Shown here: positions 8,024-19,982 of the stretch, in pieces
Layout of the letters: the number at the start of each line of letters is the position of its first letter
How positions within the stretch are numbered: the first letter of the stretch is position 1
Assembly (NCBI RefSeq): GCF_003072485.1
Contig: NZ_CP025989.1
Coordinates: forward strand, 480,001-512,000
Direction of reading: 5' to 3'
Source of the DNA: Candidatus Fokinia solitaria
GTDB taxonomy: Bacteria > Pseudomonadota > Alphaproteobacteria > Rickettsiales > Midichloriaceae
DNA: 32,000 nt
Notes under the pieces: generated by a model
What the model was told of the DNA's origin: nothing
Database searches by the model: none
Seen by the model: only the letters and a program-made list of their open reading frames with translations
Made by a program: the position numbers and the translations under genes

Positions 8024-8083
8024 TCACTGACTTGTGACGAAAGTACTCTTGCATTATCATTCTTGTAAAAACTCTTGTATCAC

Positions 8084-9862
8084 ATGTATATCATCTTTTC
8101 TCGAGTATTTCGCGTTCTGCCACATCTTTTAGCATTATTGTTCGGAGTTTTAATAACTTCTTATGTTTATGCATCGATAGATAATGATATCGACGTGTCA
8201 TTTGAGAAAAAAGATGACTATATAGAGATTTCCTTTGATTCGAGTTTGCAATCCATTGCGCTATTTTCTCATCATAAAAGCGGTATCGGAAAAAATTTCG
8301 AGATTACTCTAGATAAAAGTAAAAGCTATAACGTAGATGCGATAGAAGTAACATGGCCTACTCCTCAGCATTCAACAAAACACATAAACGACATCGTCAT
8401 TCCATACTCATACTACACACTTCCGCTAAAAATCAAAATCAAATGTCATAAACTCAATCATTCAATATATGAATATGATACAGCTCTTGAATTGCGGTAC
8501 TCGTTTTGCACAAATGACATATGTAAAATAGAAAAACACGCAATCGTTATAGAACATCGAAGAAATGCTGATTTAATTACAGTAATATTCATATGCATTG
8601 GTGCTTTTATAAGCGGGCTCTTACTCAATTGCATGCCATGCGTACTACCAGTAATTTCAATCAAGATATCATCTCTCTTTAAGTATTCATCATACAGCAA
8701 AAAAGCACTTGCGCTTCATATAACAGCAATATCATGCGGAGTACTAACGGTATTTGCAAGCATCGGTATAATGACAATATTTCTAAAGTATTGCGGACTT
8801 TCTTTTGGATGGGGGATGCATTTTCAATCTCCAATATTCGTAATATTTCTCGCTCTGATAATGATGTACTTCGCAAATAAATCTCTTAATCAGAATAGCT
8901 ATATTATGATACCACCATTCATCAATAGCATAGTTAATAAATTCTCCGCTTTGAAAAATGAGTATTTCTTAAGTTTTTCATTCGGCCTAAGTACCACATT
9001 ATTGGCAATTCCCTGCGCAGGACCGCTTCTTGCTCCAGCCATAGCATTCTCTATGAGTCAAGGATATATCTTTATAATAGCAATTCACGTAATCGTCGGC
9101 TTAGGAGTAGCTTCTCCATACGTTATACTGCTGTGCTTCTCGAGACTCGTGAAGTTCATACCTAGAAGCAGTATTGTATCGGAAGGTATAATTCTGTTTT
9201 TGACACTTCCTATTATAATAACTTACTGTTGGTTACTCTACATATTAGCGCGGCAAGTAAGCTATATATCGTACTCGATTATAATGTGCTCGATGTTGCT
9301 GCTACAAATATCACTTGCGAGAAAAACAATATATAAAATAGCAAGGATAATAAAAATCAAATACACGCAATATCAGAAACAGGAAAAATATAAGATACTG
9401 TACTACGCCATCTGGGTCACGCTACCAGTATCACGAGGTTGGCTTCATGTATCACACTCAATTATGAAGGGGATAATGTTGATATTACCCCTAGCATGCG
9501 TGCTTCATTGCGCAATTAGTAATCATATAATAATTGGTCTCAGTAAAAACGATATAGAATTACAAATACAGGAAAAGCAGCAAAACTATCAATCCATACT
9601 TGTGAATGTCACAGCAGATTGGTGTATTACCTGTAAAATCAACAAAATAGCAATCGATGAATTTATGAAGAAATACAGTAGTACTATAGGATTGGTAGAA
9701 CTGGATTATACGAATAAATCAGAAGGAATTTCGCACTACTTAGCAGAACATCATAGTAATGGTATACCATTGACTGTACTATATAGAAAAAACGGAACAA
9801 AGCTAATACTACCAACTATCATTACGGATAAAATTTTATTAAAAATTATAAAGGAAAATTGA
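8084..9862 (+). CDS. dsbD: thiol:disulfide interchange protein DsbD (three-domain, full length)
   Basis: Signal peptide ending ...SYVYA|SI. N-terminal periplasmic domain with the Cys pair FCTNDIC. CcdA/DsbD membrane core with NCMPCVLPV and AIPCAGPLL. C-terminal thioredoxin fold with WCITCK. ATG 8084 is preferred; the longest ORF starts at TTG 8075. Confidence 0.85.
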   Translation: MYIIFSRVFRVLPHLLALLFGVLITSYVYASIDNDIDVSFEKKDDYIEISFDSSLQSIALFSHHKSGIGKNFEITLDKSKSYNVDAIEVTWPTPQHSTKHINDIVIPYSYYTLPLKIKIKCHKLNHSIYEYDTALELRYSFCTNDICKIEKHAIVIEHRRNADLITVIFICIGAFISGLLLNCMPCVLPVISIKISSLFKYSSYSKKALALHITAISCGVLTVFASIGIMTIFLKYCGLSFGWGMHFQSPIFVIFLALIMMYFANKSLNQNSYIMIPPFINSIVNKFSALKNEYFLSFSFGLSTTLLAIPCAGPLLAPAIAFSMSQGYIFIIAIHVIVGLGVASPYVILLCFSRLVKFIPRSSIVSEGIILFLTLPIIITYCWLLYILARQVSYISYSIIMCSMLLLQISLARKTIYKIARIIKIKYTQYQKQEKYKILYYAIWVTLPVSRGWLHVSHSIMKGIMLILPLACVLHCAISNHIIIGLSKNDIELQIQEKQQNYQSILVNVTADWCITCKINKIAIDEFMKKYSSTIGLVELDYTNKSEGISHYLAEHHSNGIPLTVLYRKNGTKLILPTIITDKILLKIIKEN

Positions 9863-9914
9863 TTTCGGGTGAAAAATCGCTTACAATCCATAAAAGGAAT
9901 TGCAAGAATGAAAG

Positions 9915-12900
9915 ATGAGAAACAGTATAGGAAATGAAACTTTTCAAGCAGCCTTGGAACAAGCGATAGGCAACAACAAAGGATACATTGAAGCTGATGA
10001 GCTCTTAAAGGCAATAGAGCAATATAATAGTAAAAAACAAATAACAGTAAACGTAAATAAGGATTTCCATACTGTTATTGACGCACTCCATGCACAAAAT
10101 AGTGGAAATTATATAAGAGTAGAAGATGTGACTAATCTACTTGAGGGGCGAAAAATAGAAAAGCCAACAACACTTACTCAGGATGAGCTAACGCAAATGC
10201 TGCAATTAAATGAAGGTTTATTGAAAAATCTAGAAGAAATAGAAAAGGAAAATAAAACTCATCTAGAGACTATTACGCAATTAGAGAGTGCAAACAGTGA
10301 TTTAACTACAAAAATACAATTTCAAGAGCGAAAGGATGATCTCGCTGCTAAAGCGCTAAACGACATAGGAGACTTTGCATCTCGGCTCAATGAAAAGCTT
10401 CTAATACAACATAGTAACAAAGCAACGCTTTCCGAGCAATTGCAAACTGCTTTCAACAAGTTAGAAAATTCACATCAACAAGAAAAGAACCTAGCTGAGG
10501 CACTTCTTAAGAAGAAAGAAGATGAATTTCAAAACAAAATCAAAGCTCTTGAAGGGAAAATATCAGATCAAGAGACATTATTGAGCTTCACTAAAAGAAA
10601 TAATGAAACAGCAAAAACGCAAGAGAAGAGTACGCCTCCTACACGGCAATTTCAGAAAAACCTAGAAACAACGCCAAATCAAATACTTATAAAAAAAATC
10701 ACAGAAAGCAAAGCAGAAATCGAACGATTACAGAAAGAACTTGATGATGCTAAGAATGCAATGCAAAGCTTAAAGAGAAATTCTCATTTACAAATTTCGA
10801 CTTCAGATAAAGGAGTCAGTACCGAACTTTTTCAACATAACCTTGAACTTAAACAAGAAAAGGATAAAAGAATACTAGAAAATCAAAATCTCAATCGGCA
10901 ATTGACAACCATTGAACAAATCAATGCTAAACTAAAAGAAGAAAATGCTAAACTCCAACAGGACAAGCAAAACGCTGAACAAAACGCATTGCTTCAATTA
11001 GCAAAGGAACAGACAAAAGATCTAGAATCTAAGAAGGCATTTTTAGATGACAAACAAAATATTCGGCAAATAAAGGATAATCTTAATCAACTGCAACATG
11101 ATATCACCAAATTACAAGATGGCGATGCTAAAACAGAAAAAGAACAACTGCAAAAGCAATTTTCCGCTATTCGCACGCAACTTCTTACTGAACCTAAACA
11201 AGCAGAAGTAAGTGACAAAAAACTAGAAGTAAGTGACAAAGGACTGAAAGAGACTTTAGAAAAATCTAAGAAAAAACTCGCTACTGCTATAGAAAACTTC
11301 TTCACGGCTTACATTGCATTAGACTCAGATCAAAAACTAAAACTAGAGACGCAAGACGCGACGACTCATACTCAGCTAGACCAAGCTAAAAACCTAGAAT
11401 TAGTAACGCAAACCATAAAAATGCAGCTAACACAACTCCTCAGCAGTAAACAGAACTTGAGCATTGCCCGACAGAAACTACAAAAAGCACAGCATGAATT
11501 CTCCACTGCTAAAGACGCTATAGAACAATCAAATATTACACAACAAAAGCAGAAAATCACAAACTCTGAGATGCTACCTAACGCCACTCAACAGAATACT
11601 ACACAAGAGAATCAAGTAATAGAAAGTATTACACTGCTAGAACAGAAATGCACACAATCTGAGCAGCATACTACAGCACTCATTCAACTAGCAGAGGCCG
11701 TTACTACACTAGAAAAAGATGTTATTTCACTAGAAAAGAAAAAAGCAGCACTACAAGAGACCTTCTCTAAGGCTGAACAAGATTTCTCTGAAGCTAAGGC
11801 ACGACTAGAAGAAGCTAACAAAGCACATCTACAAATAGATGGGCAAAGAATACGACAGGATCTCGAAAGAAGAAAAGAGAAAATGAAAAATAAATCTATA
11901 ACATTGGAACAGCAACAAGTAGAAGAAAAGACAAAGAAGGAACTAGCAGAATCTGAAGAGAATGTTAAAAATGCACAAAATGAATTTCTCAAAGCTAAAA
12001 AACAACTTGATCTTGCGCAACAAGATACGAAAGAGGTAAAAATACAAGAAAGGAAATACGCAGAATCTCTACAAAAGCTCTCTACTAAAAAAAATCAATT
12101 AGAACTCTCCATTGCTAAAAATCAGCTTTCCATCGCTCAAGCACAAGCTAAAGAATCTCTACAAGAGACAATCAAAAATTATGAAGAGAAACTAGAAATC
12201 GCTAATAAAGAGACGAAAACACTACAACAGAATGCACAACAACTAAATCAGCAAATCCTAAACTATCAAAACCAACTCCAAGAATCTCAAAATAAAACCT
12301 CTGTACTACAAAAGGAAAGTCAAGAATATAAAGACAAACTAGAAATCGCTAATCAGCAACTCACAGAATCTGCTCAGAACCTAGCAAACGCTAATCAGCA
12401 AACCTCTGAACTACAAAACCAAATCAACTCCGCTGAACTACAAATCAAAGAATCTGCTCAGAACCTAGCAAACGCTAATCAGCAAACCGATGAACTACAA
12501 AAACAACTCAAAGAATCTGATAACAAGAAAAAACAACTAGAACAGCAAACCGATGAACTACAAAAGGAAATCCAAGAATCTCAAAACAAACTCAAAGAAT
12601 CTGCTCAAAAACTAGAAATTGCTAATCAGCAAACCTCTGTACTACAAAACAAACTCAAAGATTATGAAGACAAACTAGAAATCGCTAATAAAGAGAAACT
12701 AAAAGTAGAAGAGAAGGCACAACAACTACAAATCCAAATCCAAGAATCTCAAAACAAACTCACCTCCGCTAATCAGCAAATCAAAGATTATAATGACAAA
12801 CTAGAAATCGCTAATAAAGAGAAACTACAACTACAAAAGGAAATCCAAGAATCTCAAAACAAACTCAAAGAATCTGATAACAAGACAAAACAACTAGAAC

Positions 12901-13415
12901 TAGATAAACAACAACTAGAACAGCAAACCGATGAACTACAAAAACAACTCAAAGAATCTGATAACAAGAAAAAACAACTAGAACAGCAAACCGATGAACT
13001 ACAAAAGGAAATCCAAGAATATAAAAAACAAATCCAAAACTATCAAAACAAACTCCAAGAATCTGATAACAAGACAAAACAACTAGAGCGAGATAACCAA
13101 AAACTACAACAGAATACGAAACAACTACAAAAGAATCTCATAAAATCTCAAAAACAGCGTAAAGCTTCTCTTGAAAAAATCGACAATTCTTTGCAGAACA
13201 GACTACGTCTAATGATAGAGCAGCTACAATCATTGACATCTAGTTTAGAAGAAGCAGAACGGAAAAAAAAGACAGGAAAGAGCGGCTTACCTCTTCGTAA
13301 AGTAAACAATATTCTGCAGAGTATGCAGCAAGATCCCTCTAGAATAGCAGCGCAAAGCGGCATTTTACAATCGACTCAGAAGGAGCGGCAGCCTTCTTCT
13401 CTACACAAGCAATAA
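9915..13415 (+). CDS. hypothetical 1,166-aa coiled-coil repeat protein (Q/K/E/N/L-rich); no recognisable catalytic domain
   Basis: Uninterrupted 3.5-kb ORF. The translation is almost entirely heptad-like low-complexity helix, with one Cys and no Trp. No signal peptide, no TM segment, no Walker motifs, and no beta-barrel or aromatic C-terminus. It has a short non-coiled N-terminal module and a basic non-coiled C-terminal tail. In-frame DNA repeats preserve the reading frame, which argues it is truly coding. Confidence 0.8.
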   Translation: MRNSIGNETFQAALEQAIGNNKGYIEADELLKAIEQYNSKKQITVNVNKDFHTVIDALHAQNSGNYIRVEDVTNLLEGRKIEKPTTLTQDELTQMLQLNEGLLKNLEEIEKENKTHLETITQLESANSDLTTKIQFQERKDDLAAKALNDIGDFASRLNEKLLIQHSNKATLSEQLQTAFNKLENSHQQEKNLAEALLKKKEDEFQNKIKALEGKISDQETLLSFTKRNNETAKTQEKSTPPTRQFQKNLETTPNQILIKKITESKAEIERLQKELDDAKNAMQSLKRNSHLQISTSDKGVSTELFQHNLELKQEKDKRILENQNLNRQLTTIEQINAKLKEENAKLQQDKQNAEQNALLQLAKEQTKDLESKKAFLDDKQNIRQIKDNLNQLQHDITKLQDGDAKTEKEQLQKQFSAIRTQLLTEPKQAEVSDKKLEVSDKGLKETLEKSKKKLATAIENFFTAYIALDSDQKLKLETQDATTHTQLDQAKNLELVTQTIKMQLTQLLSSKQNLSIARQKLQKAQHEFSTAKDAIEQSNITQQKQKITNSEMLPNATQQNTTQENQVIESITLLEQKCTQSEQHTTALIQLAEAVTTLEKDVISLEKKKAALQETFSKAEQDFSEAKARLEEANKAHLQIDGQRIRQDLERRKEKMKNKSITLEQQQVEEKTKKELAESEENVKNAQNEFLKAKKQLDLAQQDTKEVKIQERKYAESLQKLSTKKNQLELSIAKNQLSIAQAQAKESLQETIKNYEEKLEIANKETKTLQQNAQQLNQQILNYQNQLQESQNKTSVLQKESQEYKDKLEIANQQLTESAQNLANANQQTSELQNQINSAELQIKESAQNLANANQQTDELQKQLKESDNKKKQLEQQTDELQKEIQESQNKLKESAQKLEIANQQTSVLQNKLKDYEDKLEIANKEKLKVEEKAQQLQIQIQESQNKLTSANQQIKDYNDKLEIANKEKLQLQKEIQESQNKLKESDNKTKQLELDKQQLEQQTDELQKQLKESDNKKKQLEQQTDELQKEIQEYKKQIQNYQNKLQESDNKTKQLERDNQKLQQNTKQLQKNLIKSQKQRKASLEKIDNSLQNRLRLMIEQLQSLTSSLEEAERKKKTGKSGLPLRKVNNILQSMQQDPSRIAAQSGILQSTQKERQPSSLHKQ
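12365..12488 (+). repeat. perfect 40-bp direct repeat pair (12365-12404 and 12449-12488)
   Basis: agaatctgctcagaacctagcaaacgctaatcagcaaacc occurs twice, checked base by base. The offset is 84 bp, which is 28 codons. Confidence 0.95.
12480..12579 (+). repeat. perfect 100-bp direct repeat, copy A
   Basis: cagcaaaccgatgaactacaaaaacaactcaaagaatctgataacaagaaaaaacaactagaacagcaaaccgatgaactacaaaaggaaatccaagaat is identical to 12921-13020, compared base by base. It contains an internal 23-bp duplication (cagcaaaccgatgaactacaaaa). Confidence 0.95.
12921..13020 (+). repeat. perfect 100-bp direct repeat, copy B
   Basis: Identical to 12480-12579. The offset is 441 bp, which is 147 codons and therefore in frame. 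Encodes QQTDELQKQLKESDNKKKQLEQQTDELQKEIQE. Confidence 0.95.
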
Positions 13416-15158: not shown

Positions 15159-15848
15159 TTACATGAATTCATATCTCATAATCAAAAAGTTGAATACGCT
15201 CTCTCCACGCAATACTGCGCTTGCATCAGGCATTTGAAACTCGATATGCACTCTTGAATTTTGAACATTCTGAACATTTCCAAGTACATCTTTCTCATAA
15301 GATGCAAATTCAATAATACAGCCGGACGGTACATCGTTATACGGCAAAAACATCACTTGTGTAATGTTAATTGTTCTACTCTTTGAATTGCCATAAAGTA
15401 ATATCGGACTATCTGAATTCTCACTTGGCTCAATAGTACTTCTATAATCATCAGCCACCATCTCTGATGACATGGCAAGTATTTTTTGAATCACGTTCTC
15501 TCTCGATTTCTCATTTATTAAAAGTGGAGTATACGTTTCTCTCAGCACTACATAGTACTGTAACATATACTCAGCGATAGAGGCGTTAACGTCGTACTGT
15601 ACATTTAATGGTCTTACTTTTTTCACAGTAATACCCGCATTTTCATTGTATAGTACAAATGATCGCTTTTTAACCTGCGCTCCATTCAAGTATGTAGAGA
15701 AATTTAATATAAGTGTAATAGTAGCGAGAATCAGCACTATTAAGAGGAATACAAAATCTCTATAATGCGATAGATATTTTGTAAAATACCAGCATCGCAC
15801 ATCGTCAAAATATTGTTGTAGATCCATTTTATCTGTACTGTTATTCAT
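15159..15848 (-). CDS. divergent VirB8-like type IV secretion component (bitopic membrane protein)
   Basis: Architecture: cytoplasmic N-terminus with YFDDVRCW, one TM segment (FVFLLIVLILATITLIL), then a periplasmic domain of about 180 aa. Matches to VirB8/RvhB8 blocks recalled from memory: EYMLQYYVVLRETY vs KYFLxxYVxxREGY; AMSSEMVADDY vs MSSxxVAxxY; terminal FNFLIMRYEF vs NPLGFxVxSYR. The longest ORF starts at TTG 15875. ATG at 15848 or 15827 is more plausible given the folE start at 15903. Confidence 0.6.
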   Translation of the reverse strand: MNNSTDKMDLQQYFDDVRCWYFTKYLSHYRDFVFLLIVLILATITLILNFSTYLNGAQVKKRSFVLYNENAGITVKKVRPLNVQYDVNASIAEYMLQYYVVLRETYTPLLINEKSRENVIQKILAMSSEMVADDYRSTIEPSENSDSPILLYGNSKSRTINITQVMFLPYNDVPSGCIIEFASYEKDVLGNVQNVQNSRVHIEFQMPDASAVLRGESVFNFLIMRYEFM

Positions 15849-15902
15849 GACGATAAGTATACGTACATAATCCAAGATTAATTAGAATTTACGCAAATAG
15901 AA

Positions 15903-16478
15903 ATGTCAAAAGTAAAAGAACATGAAATTGAAAACTCAATCAGAAAGATATTAGAATATATAGGAGAAAACCCTGATAGAGAAGGACTATCAGAAACTCC
16001 GAAAAGAGTAGTTAAGGCATTTAAAGAGTACTTCAGCGGATATAATCAAAATCACCACGAAATACTTGGAAAAACTTTCACAGAAACTGCTGGATATAGC
16101 GATATGATAGCACTCACAAATCTCAGAGTGCAATCTCATTGCGAACATCATATTGCGCCAATAACAGGACAAGCAATTGTTGCATATATTCCAAAAAATG
16201 CAGTAGTAGGCATTAGTAAAATTTCTAGACTTGTATCAATGTATTCTCACAGACTTCAATTGCAAGAAAGACTTACAAAACAAATACTTGATGCAATAGA
16301 TGAAGTACTGACACCATATGGCACAGCGGTATATATATCAGCATCTCACTCATGTCTTTCCAAAAGAGGGATATGCGATGATGAAGCAATGGTTCAAACA
16401 TTTGCTTTTAGTGGAGATTTCCTAAATTCACAACTCGACTATAAACAAAGATTTATCGCACTAACTCAACGCGTTTAA
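15903..16478 (+). CDS. folE: GTP cyclohydrolase I
   Basis: REGLSETPKRVVKAF, the zinc/active-site block SHCEHHIAPITG, then VGISKISRLV and RLQLQERLTKQI. Confidence 0.93.
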   Translation: MSKVKEHEIENSIRKILEYIGENPDREGLSETPKRVVKAFKEYFSGYNQNHHEILGKTFTETAGYSDMIALTNLRVQSHCEHHIAPITGQAIVAYIPKNAVVGISKISRLVSMYSHRLQLQERLTKQILDAIDEVLTPYGTAVYISASHSCLSKRGICDDEAMVQTFAFSGDFLNSQLDYKQRFIALTQRV

Positions 16479-17075
16479 TCGGTATATCATACGTATTAAC
16501 GTAGTATCTCCATATTTTTTTTGTTTTACATCACGTATTTTTGCACGGCAGTTTGCTAACATCTCTATTATTGCTGATGTTGCGCTTGATGGTATTTCAT
16601 AAAATATCATCCCCTCTTCTCTCATAAAGCTGAAACTACGCAATAACATAAGCATGCATTCAATAGCATTTATTGAGTGCTCGTATGGAGGATCAAAGTA
16701 TAATACATCATATGTTTTTCGAAGATTTGGAATGATATTTTGAAAATCTCCTCTTATTACTTCGATAGAATTACCGAACTCTGCATATGCTTTTATGAAT
16801 CTCTCAACATTTTTCAGTATTTGAGAATAAACTCTTCCATCCATTTCTATCATAGTAACAGCATCAATGCCATTTGATAACGCTTCAAAAGAGCATGCGC
16901 CAGTACCTGCGCAAACATCAAGGAAATTGCTATCTTTGAGTACTATGCCACTGTTGTGTAAAATATTAAACACCGCTTCTTTTACAATACTTTTTGTAGG
17001 CTTATATCCTGAAATATTTTGAGTAACGGAGGTAGTAAAGGGAAAGTCTTTGCATTTACCGGATAGAATTTTCAT
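16461..17075 (-). CDS. rsmD: 16S rRNA (guanine966-N2)-methyltransferase
   Basis: RsmD layout: MKILSGKCK...KPTKSIVKEAVFNIL, SAM motif LDVCAGTGACSFEALSNG, and catalytic FDPPY. The 3' end overlaps folE by 18 bp (convergent). Confidence 0.8.
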   Translation of the reverse strand: MKILSGKCKDFPFTTSVTQNISGYKPTKSIVKEAVFNILHNSGIVLKDSNFLDVCAGTGACSFEALSNGIDAVTMIEMDGRVYSQILKNVERFIKAYAEFGNSIEVIRGDFQNIIPNLRKTYDVLYFDPPYEHSINAIECMLMLLRSFSFMREEGMIFYEIPSSATSAIIEMLANCRAKIRDVKQKKYGDTTLIRMIYRLNALS

Positions 17076-17157: not shown

Positions 17158-17610
17158 ATGTTCATCACTACTAGAACGCAATACGCAGTAATAGCTTTAC
17201 TGGAATTACAAAATAATGAAGGAAGATACATCACGTTATCGAGTATTGCAAATAAGCATTCTATCGAGCTTTCGTATCTCGAGGTAATATGTGCAAAATT
17301 AAGAAGAAATGGTATTCTTAAAGCTGCTAAAGGGCCAGGTGGTGGATATTCTCTTGTAAAGCCTGCAAATCAAATTTCACTTTTATCAGTACTTACGGCT
17401 GCCGGAGAGAAAATAAAGCTTACAAGATGTAAAGGAAAACATGGATGTATGAAAAATAATCAAAAGTGCGAAACGCACGAGTTATGGACTAGTATGGAAA
17501 GGCACATCAAGGATTATCTTCATTCTATAAATCTACCTTCCCTTAAGAGTGGTTCAGGATGTAATTTTATGCGCAGAATTATTTCTCAATATAGCAATGA
17601 TATACCTTGA
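17158..17610 (+). CDS. iscR: Rrf2-family transcriptional regulator, IscR-like
   Basis: Rrf2 winged-helix N-terminus TRTQYAVIALLEL...GGGYSL. Three clustered Cys (CKGKHGCMKNNQKC) sit in the position of the IscR Fe-S ligands. It lies directly upstream of the cysteine desulfurases. Confidence 0.8.
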   Translation: MFITTRTQYAVIALLELQNNEGRYITLSSIANKHSIELSYLEVICAKLRRNGILKAAKGPGGGYSLVKPANQISLLSVLTAAGEKIKLTRCKGKHGCMKNNQKCETHELWTSMERHIKDYLHSINLPSLKSGSGCNFMRRIISQYSNDIP

Positions 17611-18742
17611 TCATAATGCCACTACACATCTTGACGAAGATGTATTAGCTTTCTTAAGAGAAATAGAAGGAGAACCGCAAAATGCATCCTCTATACACTC
17701 TTATGGTGAACGTGCAAAGCGAGCACTAGATTCTGCAAGAGTTAGCGTATTGGACACACTCGGATGTGATAAGAAATTATATAATGTAGCTTTCACTTCT
17801 TCCGGCACAGAGGCAAATAATATCGTAATTAATAGCTGGATAAGCAACGACTACAGCATACTTACACCTGCTACTGAACATAAATCCATTTTAGAATCGG
17901 TAAAACGTTCACAGAAATACGAAATAATAAATGTTCACTCTAATGGCACGTTGGATTTTTCAAATTTAGAAAAATCGATTATCGAACTGAAGCGGCGTAA
18001 TAATAAGGTCGCAATATCGGTGATGTACGCTAATAATGAAACGGGCGTTATTCATCCACTTAAGGAAATATATGCACTTAGCCAAAAGCACGAGTGCATA
18101 CTACATACCGATATATCGCAAGCATTAGGAAAGATGCATCTTTCCTTTCACGAGATAAAATCGGATTACATTACATTTAGCGGACATAAGATAGGCGCAA
18201 TGACAGGTACAGGATGTTTGCTATTCAAAAATCATGTGCCAATAGAAAAAATGATGTACGGTGGCGAACAAGAATATGGCATAAGGCCAAGTACTCAGAA
18301 TTCAGTTGGAATTGCCACCATCGAAATAGCACTACGAAACACGTCTCAAAAGATCCAACAAATGGACACTACTATCAGAATTCTAAGAGATAAAATTGAA
18401 AAAGAGTTGTTAGAATATAGTATTTCTTCTGACACTAATAAGCTCTTCTTTATAGGAAATGAAGTAGAGAGAATACCAAATACGTCATGTATAGGTATAA
18501 AAGGAGTAGATGCAAACACTCAAGCTATAATACTTGATATGATGAAATGTGCAGTAGGAATAGGTGCGGCCTGTTCTTCTGGAATAACTGAAGCTTCTCA
18601 CGTTTTACTTGCGATGGGGTATTCATCAGAAGAAGCAAGTAACGCTATCAGAATTAGTCTCGGCAGAAAAAATACCGATGACGAAATAGAGGCATTTCTC
18701 AATGCATGGAAAAACATGTATTCAAAAGTCACTAAAAAATGA
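17597..18742 (+). CDS. cysteine desulfurase, NifS-like paralogue (class V aminotransferase)
   Basis: [12 protein letters not shown]-lysine motif FSGHKIG, and catalytic Cys loop [19 protein letters not shown]. It lacks the IscS C-terminal extension. ATG 17597 is chosen and overlaps the iscR stop by 14 bp. The longer ORF from 17549 would run through the iscR 3' end. Confidence 0.88.
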
Positions 18743-18758
18743 ATTTACGATCACTACA

Positions 18759-19982
18759 ATGACAGCAAAAAAAATATATATGGATTATCAAGCAACTACA
18801 CCTACAGATCCTAGAGTATTGCAAGCGATGCTTCCGTTCTTCTCAGAGAAATTCGGCAATCCTCATTCTCGCAGTCACGCATTTGGCTGGGAATCTGAAA
18901 GTGCTGTAGAAGATGCACGCTCAATAATAGCAAACGCTATTAATGCATCTCACGACGAGATTATCTTTACTTCTGGTGCTACTGAATCCAATAACATCGC
19001 ATTAAAGGGAGTAGCACGATTTTATAGTAAAAACTTCAATAAGAATCACATTATTACACCAGTTACCGAACATAAATGCATTCTGGACTCTTGTAGAACT
19101 CTGGAAGATGAAGGCATTGAAGTCACTTACTTACCAGTAGAAAACGATGGAATGCTAAATCTTGATACCTTGAAAAAAGCTATTAAAGCTAACACTGCAT
19201 TAGTATCGGTGATGATGGTAAATAATGAAATAGGAGTAATACAGCAAATAAAGTCAATAGGTGAGATTTGCAGAGAAAGAGGCGTAATATTTCACACTGA
19301 TGCGGCACAAGCATTTTGTAAAATACCAATAGACGTGAGAGACATGTGTATCGATATGCTAAGCATCTCTGGGCATAAAATATACGGCCCTAAAGGAGTA
19401 GGTGCTCTTTTCGTAGGTAAGCATCCAACACGAGTAAGATTACAGCCTATGATGAGTGGAGGTGGACAAGAAAGAGGAATGCGCTCAGGAACGTTACCTA
19501 CCCCTCTTATAGTAGGCTTAGGAGAAGCTACTAAATGCAGCATACAAGATATGCAAAAAGACTATGCGCATGTTTCCCTTCTTGGAAAGCAATTTATACA
19601 AGAAATGCTAAAAATACCACATGTGATATTAAATGGCAGCCTTGATGCGCGTTACCCTGGCTGCATCAATCTCAGCTTTGCATATGTAGAAGGTGAATCT
19701 TTAATACTCGCACTAAAAGACATTGCAGTTTCTTCAGGGTCTGCATGTACATCAAATTCTCTTGAGCCATCTTATGTTGTGCAAGCTTTAGGAGGAGATA
19801 AGGATTTAGCACATTCTTCAATAAGATTCGGATTCGGTAGATTTACTACACAAGAAGAAGTTGATATCACAATACGATCCGTGAAAAATGCCGTCTCTAA
19901 ACTAAGAGAAATGAGTCCATTATGGGATATGGTACAAGACGGTGTAGATCTTTCTTCGATAAATTGGAAGAGTGATCATTGA
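18759..19982 (+). CDS. iscS: cysteine desulfurase IscS
   Basis: [38 protein letters not shown], catalytic loop [16 protein letters not shown], and the IscS-type C-terminal tail. ATG 18759 is chosen because the upstream extension from 18702 overlaps the preceding gene. Confidence 0.93.

Follow-up and report, generated by a model that had tools for sequence, protein, structure and literature searches.

An orphan coiled-coil protein of Candidatus Fokinia solitaria as a possible host-interface tether or scaffold

What does a bacterium with a genome of 837,348 bp do with a coiled-coil protein of 1,166 amino acids (aa) that belongs to no curated family? The question is raised by the open reading frame (ORF) 9915-13415 in a 32,000-nucleotide (nt) stretch of DNA, analysed as a whole and here called the window, from Candidatus Fokinia solitaria, a Paramecium endosymbiont of the Midichloriaceae (Rickettsiales). 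An earlier note, made from the sequence of the window, had left the choice between a translocated effector and an intermediate filament (IF)-like scaffold. In the present analysis the sequence decides for neither, while the outlying rate of divergence, the species-specific repeats and the conserved termini tilt the balance towards the host interface, where the protein is tentatively read as an exported, dimeric, rod-shaped tether or scaffold. The protein accession is AWD33264, as implied by the accessions of the neighbours AWD33262, AWD33265 and AWD33266.

An intact gene restricted to the genus Fokinia

The comparison as a whole covers two species, F. solitaria and Ca. Fokinia cryptica, with the Logan contig L020 showing no difference from the F. 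cryptica genome. In CP110343 (contig L019) the syntenic locus was reached via the F. cryptica L11 protein, and the gene order is identical in both species: CDF–murB–dsbD-like–X–tatD–L11–L19–virB8–folE, where X is the orthologue of the coiled-coil gene and comprises at least 1,543 codons in one frame. It is co-linear with aa 1-290 of the F. solitaria protein (26 % identity, E≈1e-12), and the start codon is supported by this co-linearity of the N-terminus, while over the last ~60 aa the identity is 35 % with the PL.KV.NI motif included. The N-terminal heads of the two proteins are 31-37 % identical (reciprocal best matches, 37 % over 71 aa), and no paralogue of the head was found within the 52 kb available. 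In the deposited annotation X is split into 885- and 282-aa products because of a frame-preserving run of N, 376 codons long (L019:12126-13252), which lies inside near-identical 33-nt repeats and may stem from masking or from a gap in the assembly.

Between the two species the identity of the 15 flanking genes is 65-95 %, versus 26 % for the best 290 aa of the coiled-coil protein, and by this comparison the gene was shown to diverge several-fold faster than every neighbouring gene. Conservation is limited to a σ70-like promoter, the head, the first ~200 residues of the rod and the last ~60 aa. The remaining rod is built differently in the two species. The F. cryptica rod is assembled from units of 33 nt (11 aa) together with longer copies, the identity of which reaches 97-98 %; the period of its hydrophobic residues is 3.56 instead of 3.50, and its amplification is recent. 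In F. solitaria every tandem-repeat period is a multiple of 21 nt (7 aa), the matches amounting to 62-81 %, and the amino-acid autocorrelation of the rod peaks at multiples of 7 only; thus, the duplications kept the heptad phase. Arrays of 7-aa multiples in one species and of 11-aa units in the other indicate that the rods arose by independent amplification. The gene is shown to be restricted to the genus and, despite extreme genome reduction, to be kept intact at the same position in both sequenced Fokinia species.

The ORF is a genuine gene. The chance of 1,166 stop-free codons at the given base composition (per-codon stop probability 0.066) is ~3e-35, no open run in 500 shuffles exceeded 169 codons, and the remaining two sense-strand frames across the gene contain 92 and 111 stops. 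At period 3.5 the hydrophobic power reaches 3.66, the shuffles having a mean of 0.17 and a maximum of 1.18, so that it lies ~20 standard deviations (SD) above them. The intactness of the frame in both species despite such a stop probability, together with the conserved promoter, head and C-terminus, counts against a degenerating or functionless low-complexity ORF, an explanation for which the very fast divergence and the repetitive character of the gene may be adduced.

The protein is composed mainly of Q, K, L, E and N (14.6, 13.6, 12.3, 11.2 and 7.8 %, respectively) and has 9 Pro, 15 Gly, a single Cys (C579) and no Trp, so that the length, the Cys count and the absence of Trp reported in the earlier note are borne out by the composition count. 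The GC content and the GC content at third codon positions (GC3) match those of the neighbours and are genome-typical, on which ground recent horizontal transfer was rejected. The coding strand in 10001-13000 of the window is A-rich and T-poor (AT skew 0.37-0.51 compared with <=0.3 elsewhere), and the codon choice is unusual, with CTA used for 63 of the 144 Leu residues and AAC for 45 % of Asn versus 21 % in the neighbours; probably, this odd codon choice and skew reflect a few amplified repeat units. Repeat amplification and the A-rich composition account for the lower correlation of codon usage (relative synonymous codon usage, r=0.62). Four antisense ORFs of 71-102 aa (11087-11305, 11372-11587, 11684-11992 and 13148-13363, all on the minus strand) mirror the repeats, are rich in Cys, Ser and Phe and were rejected as low-complexity artefacts.

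The homologue search proposed in the earlier note revealed no relative outside the genus. Neither the full-length protein nor its N-terminal 191 aa found a homologue in a word-indexed search of 5.8 billion proteins, and the two-species head profile found none in the same set. In an exhaustive phmmer search of 1.84 billion representatives the N-terminal 110 aa gave nothing at E<=1e-3, and metagenome scans with the head alignment and with an alignment of the DsbD-like protein were likewise empty.

All profile matches of the protein were weak, local and confined to the coiled coil. The best Pfam and Protein Data Bank (PDB) match is tropomyosin, which likewise has an unbroken heptad coiled coil and is matched over aa 754-1035; it was rejected since PF00261 reaches 35.7 bits versus a gathering threshold of 38.6 over aa 793-1035 only, the PDB matches score 20-24 bits, and the match, limited to a quarter of the protein, is due to composition and periodicity and not to homology. 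Crescentin was rejected as well, and the 21.9 bits of Pfam Rod_CreS versus a cut-off of 100 count against an intrabacterial scaffold of that type. The weak local matches to SMC (NCBIfam SMC_prok_B, 62.5 versus cut-off 567), Rad50 (26.8 bits versus cut-off 1087) and JetC (28 bits) are confined to the arms. They could speak for a nucleoid or chromosome organiser replacing SMC-like functions; however, SMC, MukB, Rad50 and JetC have only the long coiled-coil arms in common with this protein, which on a regex search showed neither a Walker A nor a Walker B motif and has no ABC signature head, central hinge or zinc hook (single Cys, no CxxC, no profile match outside the coiled coil). The claim of the earlier note that the gene is not SMC is thus upheld, and homology to SMC, MukB or another characterised family, which was named there as refuting the proposed roles, was not found, all matches being sub-threshold. 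A phage tape measure was rejected at 26.7 bits, the match being local and without phage context.

Neither a transmembrane segment nor a hydrophobic signal peptide was found, as already stated in the earlier note, the maximum 19-residue Kyte-Doolittle mean being 0.94. An autotransporter or Sec-exported fibre was rejected, in line with the same note, in view of this hydrophilic N-terminus and of a C-terminus made of helix and disorder. Among short motifs, NPF, DPF, LIR, PxxP, LPXTG and RGD are absent or not conserved in the two orthologues, and a WH2-like actin-binding motif was rejected because LRKV at aa 1127 (LDKV in F. cryptica) has no preceding amphipathic helix.

Head, rod and tail of the protein

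The layout of the protein (Table 1) was obtained from a heptad register map and the secondary structure of an AlphaFold2 (AF2) model. The whole-protein model is 79 % helical with a predicted local distance difference test (pLDDT) score of 50, a low confidence given by a single sequence. The longest single-register stretch (329 aa) is more than four times the 81-aa maximum found in shuffles, with 69 % of its a and d positions hydrophobic and a period-3.5 power of 4.89. The nearly continuous heptad-like helix described earlier is therefore correct as to periodicity and not as to continuity, as the head is non-coiled and five linkers interrupt or end the helix; the Pro/Ser/Thr breaks then noticed are present, namely KSTPPTRQFQKNLETTPNQ at aa 238-256 and SHLQISTSDKGVSTE at aa 290-304. 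As a whole the protein has the tripartite plan of IF-like coiled-coil-rich proteins (CCRPs), with a head, a segmented heptad rod with linkers and a tail.

Table 1. Positions in the window of the coiled-coil gene, its upstream signals and the parts of the encoded protein
Feature	Position	Strand	Residues (aa)	Basis or remark
σ70-type promoter footprint	9859..9887	+		consensus scan and F. cryptica alignment; -35 TTGATT 9859-9864, 17-nt spacer, -10 TACAAT 9882-9887
Possible ribosome-binding site AAGGA	9895..9899	+		15 nt 5' of ATG; weak assignment
Coding sequence	9915..13415	+	1-1166	ATG start; 134.6 kDa, pI 7.6
Head	9915..10145	+	1-77	small, globular, non-coiled
Linker	10146..10178	+	78-88	GRKIEKPTTLT
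Rod segment 1	10179..10586	+	89-224	non-repetitive coiled coil, co-linear with F. cryptica
Linker with Pro, Ser, Thr	10587..10685	+	225-257	
Rod segment 2	10686..11183	+	258-423	register shifts; first ~30 aa alone align to F. cryptica
Linker	11184..11249	+	424-445	
Rod segment 3	11250..11564	+	446-550	
Linker	11565..11636	+	551-574	
Rod segment 4 (main rod)	11637..13265	+	575-1117	
Unbroken single-register heptad coiled coil	12153..13139	+	747-1075	329 aa, ~49 nm if extended
Degenerate tandem-repeat zone	12339..13153	+		Tandem Repeats Finder; periods 21, 42, 84, 105, 126, 147 nt
Tail	13266..13412	+	1118-1166	pI 11.2, net +7, predicted disordered after motif helix
Conserved C-terminal motif LPLRKVNNILQSM	13287..13325	+	1125-1137	predicted short helix

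The head resembles a degenerate pair of EF-hands, being predicted to fold twice as helix-loop-β-helix. In the AF2 model of the N-terminus (pLDDT 54) helices at residues 6-19 and 27-41 flank a strand at 24-26, and helices at 49-61 and 69-76 flank a strand at 66-68. The best Pfam matches of the head in both species are EF-hand_6, EF-hand_7 and EF-hand_1, below threshold (for EF-hand_6, 18.7 and 21 bits versus a cut-off of 25). Of the 15 best matches of the two-species head profile in PDB, 12 are troponin C, calmodulin or calcium-dependent protein kinases (E 0.2-0.9). Most of the Foldseek top 50 are likewise EF-hand proteins (E>=0.13); since none is significant, the structural comparison of the N-terminus suggested in the earlier note yielded a resemblance to EF-hands and not an assigned fold. 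In the alignment of the head with genuine EF-hand pairs by hhalign the first hand was matched with 77 % probability; the score of 27.8 was reached by none of 300 column shuffles (mean 10.3, SD 2.1, maximum 20.9), while the second hand alone gave a borderline score of 20.4. The first EF-hand is thus well supported and the second is plausible.

Neither loop of the head is, in the two-species alignment, a canonical 12-residue Ca-binding loop. Position 1 is occupied by Ile or Leu in loop 1 and by Ala or Ser in loop 2; loop 1 of F. solitaria also carries Lys at position 5, and that of F. cryptica Gln at position 12. Since Asp at position 1 is absent and other ligand positions are substituted, the loops probably do not bind Ca, and the head is most likely a degenerate, Ca-independent EF-hand-like pair, as judged from models and profiles.

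At the opposite end, the F. cryptica counterpart of LPLRKVNNILQSM is PPLDKVSNIVKEV, the common pattern being PL.KV.NI. The basic disordered C-terminus announced in the earlier note is recovered in the tail (Table 1). The net charge of the last 50 aa is +8 in F. solitaria and +2 in F. cryptica, and that of the last 25 aa is +3 and +2, respectively.

Promoter and neighbouring genes

The -35 and -10 hexamers upstream of the gene have their counterpart in F. cryptica, where TTGATT and TATAAT stand at the same 17-nt spacing (L019 ~15925-15955, minus strand) and the spacer sequence is diverged. Because the hexamers and their distance are conserved while the spacer is not, the gene can be considered to be transcribed independently. 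The 52-nt gap after the dsbD-like gene is as reported earlier; however, the co-directionality with dsbD and murB, which the earlier note had brought forward, loses its weight as a sign of co-transcription once a separate promoter footprint is conserved in both species. In F. cryptica GAGG occurs at a distance from the start similar to that of the possible ribosome-binding site.

Pfam places every other sizeable ORF of the window in a housekeeping family, or, in one case, in the VirB8 family, so that the gene is the sole orphan here and the impression of the earlier note to this effect is fully justified. The genes placed are rpoC, the end of rpoB, thiolase, aspS, clpB, an isc/suf-type cluster, folE, rsmD, L19, L11, tatD, murB, the CDF transporter, ubiE, fabZ/A, gatB, ackA, acpS, pgsA and a gene of the Bax-inhibitor family.

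The VirB8-like gene (15159..15875, Pfam VirB8 E=1.2e-8) indeed lies 1.7 kb away, as had been noted. It sits between rplS and folE, is syntenic in F. cryptica and is 79 % identical there. It behaves as a conserved, scattered component of the type IV secretion system (T4SS) and does not form an island with the coiled-coil gene, and scattered T4SS genes are typical of Rickettsiales. Its former use as evidence for an effector must be given up, and a functional linkage of the two genes was rejected, because virB8 is syntenic and evolves like a housekeeping gene. The proximity of virB8 supports neither the exported nor the intrabacterial reading.

Several further observations concern the surroundings. 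The dsbD neighbour (8075-9862) matches only thioredoxin-like Pfam models, at its C-terminus; it shows PCxxP-type membrane motifs (MPCVLPV, IPCAGP), its N-terminal ~160 aa have no family assignment, and the listed ORF begins at TTG, with the F. cryptica orthologue aligning from residue 4. The coiled-coil gene and tatD are convergent, their stop codons being 6 nt apart without a terminator-like hairpin. Also convergent are folE (15903-16478, +) and an rsmD-like methyltransferase gene (16461-17075, -), the 3' ends of which overlap by 18 nt. Two adjacent cysteine-desulfurase (Aminotran_5) paralogues, 17549-18742 and 18702-19982, overlap by 41 nt, with an Rrf2 regulator gene upstream of the pair and iscU downstream.

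Possible roles of the protein

An exported tether or scaffold at the host–symbiont interface is, tentatively, the favoured role. According to this proposal, which is built on sequence comparison, two chains would pair in parallel to give a rod of 50 to >100 nm, and selection would act on the length and periodicity of this rod, serving as a spacer, and not on its sequence. The head would be a Ca-independent protein- or peptide-binding module, and the C-terminal motif with the basic tail may act as an export signal or anchor. Outside the bacterium the protein would bind a host component as a tether or scaffold, and its fast divergence would mirror the differing hosts and niches of the two species, that is, the cytoplasm in F. 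solitaria and a vacuole in F. cryptica. It might also be a part of the fibrillar, ribosome-free rim around F. solitaria, a circumstantial suggestion.

This role is favoured because the conserved ends, the species-specific repeats and the synteny match the secreted repeat effectors of Rickettsiales, because even the globular head outpaces every neighbouring gene in divergence, and because the two species occupy different intracellular niches. Ehrlichia tandem repeat proteins (TRPs) have syntenic orthologues with conserved flanks and species-specific repeats and resemble the Fokinia protein in this respect. The TRPs of Ehrlichia and Anaplasma (TRP47, TRP120) also are, like it, Rickettsiales proteins that are lineage-specific and without a Sec signal, and the location of their export information at the C-terminus (PMC3417381) would be a further likeness, Ehrlichia TRPs leaving the cell via the type I secretion system (T1SS) by means of C-terminal signals (PMC3417381). 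In contrast, TRPs are acidic, Ser-rich, largely disordered T1SS substrates, while the protein of Fokinia, a near-neutral heptad coiled coil, shows no sequence similarity to them. Unlike the C-terminal 50 aa of T1SS substrates, which are rich in the residues LDAVTSIF and poor in KHPMWC (PMC3417381), its C-terminus is basic and K/P-rich, with 42 % and 36 % of the former set and 24 % and 30 % of the latter in the two species, and thus does not fit the TRP-like T1SS signal.

The cell biology of the symbionts provides a setting for such a role. F. solitaria lies naked in the cytoplasm, where it is surrounded by a narrow ribosome-free rim with fine fibrils, sometimes with a trailing 'tail' (PMC4701390). 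It has no flagella, and the authors of the transmission electron microscopy (TEM) study suggested movement in the host and a distinctive distribution (PMC4701390). Its genome was described to contain multiple secretion systems and putative secreted proteins and no flagella, pili or adhesins (PMC5905368), and lineage-specific effectors have been described as typical of Rickettsiales (PMC10847448).

Several points weigh against the host-interface role. A signal peptide is absent, and the basic C-terminus is weakly T4SS-like, with the small net charges given above for the last 25 aa. The neighbourhood is a housekeeping one and GC3 is genome-typical. The assignment of the EF-hands is based on sub-threshold or low-confidence signals and is statistically solid for the first hand only. 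Coiled-coil rods constrained in their pattern only can drift fast in small endosymbiont populations, so that the rate outlier could be a sign of relaxed constraint. Finally, F. cryptica, a halo-less inhabitant of a symbiontophorous vacuole (PMC5118934), nevertheless keeps the gene, and this weakens the link to the fibrillar rim.

The strongest competitor of the host-interface role, a possible though lesser one, is an intrabacterial IF-like coiled-coil-rich scaffold of the crescentin, FilP or Scy type, or analogous to Mycoplasma HMW2, which would self-assemble without nucleotide and organise the shape, poles or division of the thin rod-shaped cell. With crescentin, FilP, Scy and HMW2 the protein shares the head–segmented rod–tail plan, the Q/K/E/L-rich heptad rod, the absence of a nucleotide motif and lineage restriction, and its size is comparable to that of Scy and HMW2; the linkers and register shifts are IF-like. 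The lack of a confidently recognisable export signal, the genome-typical GC3, the housekeeping surroundings and the adjoining cell-envelope genes murB and dsbD-like in conserved synteny agree with this explanation, and the near-consensus promoter suits an abundant structural protein. Lineage restriction and poor conservation are found in the known bacterial CCRPs, too. However, the protein differs from these scaffolds in its EF-hand-like head and in the different periodicity of the sister-species rod. Apart from the low Rod_CreS score, a head that binds a conserved partner is not expected to fall to 31-37 % identity when the lowest neighbour stands at 65 %, and heptad versus hendecad-type repeats in proteins of 1,166 and at least 1,543 aa would be unusual for a lattice-forming filament. 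Moreover, we know of no cytoskeletal CCRP characterised in Rickettsiales.

The combined alternative of a decaying ORF or a nucleoid organiser is improbable on the evidence described with the frame and the family matches. Still less probable is an extended version of host mimicry, in which a secreted protein imitating eukaryotic scaffolds with an EF-hand pair and a coiled coil, such as dynein or endocytic adaptors, would couple the bacterium or its vacuole to ciliate motors or membranes, in-phase repeats would retune the rod length for the cytosolic or the vacuolar niche, and the rim and 'tail' would be its visible product. The least probable explanation is an exported mimic of a eukaryotic scaffold combining an EF-hand pair with a coiled coil, modelled on Eps15-like EH/coiled-coil proteins or on dynein activating adaptors of the EF-hand type (CRACR2a, Rab11-FIP3, ninein); its head would grab a host motor or adaptor peptide while the rod positions the bacterium. 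In favour of it, the predicted domain order is the same as in CRACR2a, Rab11-FIP3, ninein and Eps15/intersectin, where a paired helix-loop-helix at the N-terminus precedes a long dimeric coiled coil; the structure 6psd, in which CRACR2a EF-hands bind a dynein light intermediate chain (LIC) peptide, is second in the Foldseek ranking, though at E=0.16; and intracellular movement with a distinctive distribution was inferred by the TEM authors (PMC4701390). Against it, the protein is bacterial, its loops have no Ca ligands, no sequence or fold match is significant, EF-hand pairs are generic, the likeness is architectural only, NPF and DPF are absent, and the Spindly motif L(F/A)xE, expected downstream of the first coiled coil, is not conserved, LAKE occurring once in F. 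solitaria (aa 362) and not at all in F. cryptica.

In summary, the gene is a genus-restricted orphan of a known kind, that of long coiled-coil and repeat proteins of obligate intracellular bacteria. About 0.4 % of the F. solitaria genome, to our knowledge the smallest reported Rickettsiales genome at its publication in 2018, encodes this one orphan protein. The orthologue pair provides a natural example in which the ends of a rod are conserved while its length and periodicity are rebuilt, and is useful for the study of spacer and ruler proteins. If intrabacterial, the protein would be an IF-like scaffold of which no earlier example has been described in Rickettsiales; if exported, it would offer a first concrete candidate for the way in which Fokinia handles its Paramecium host.

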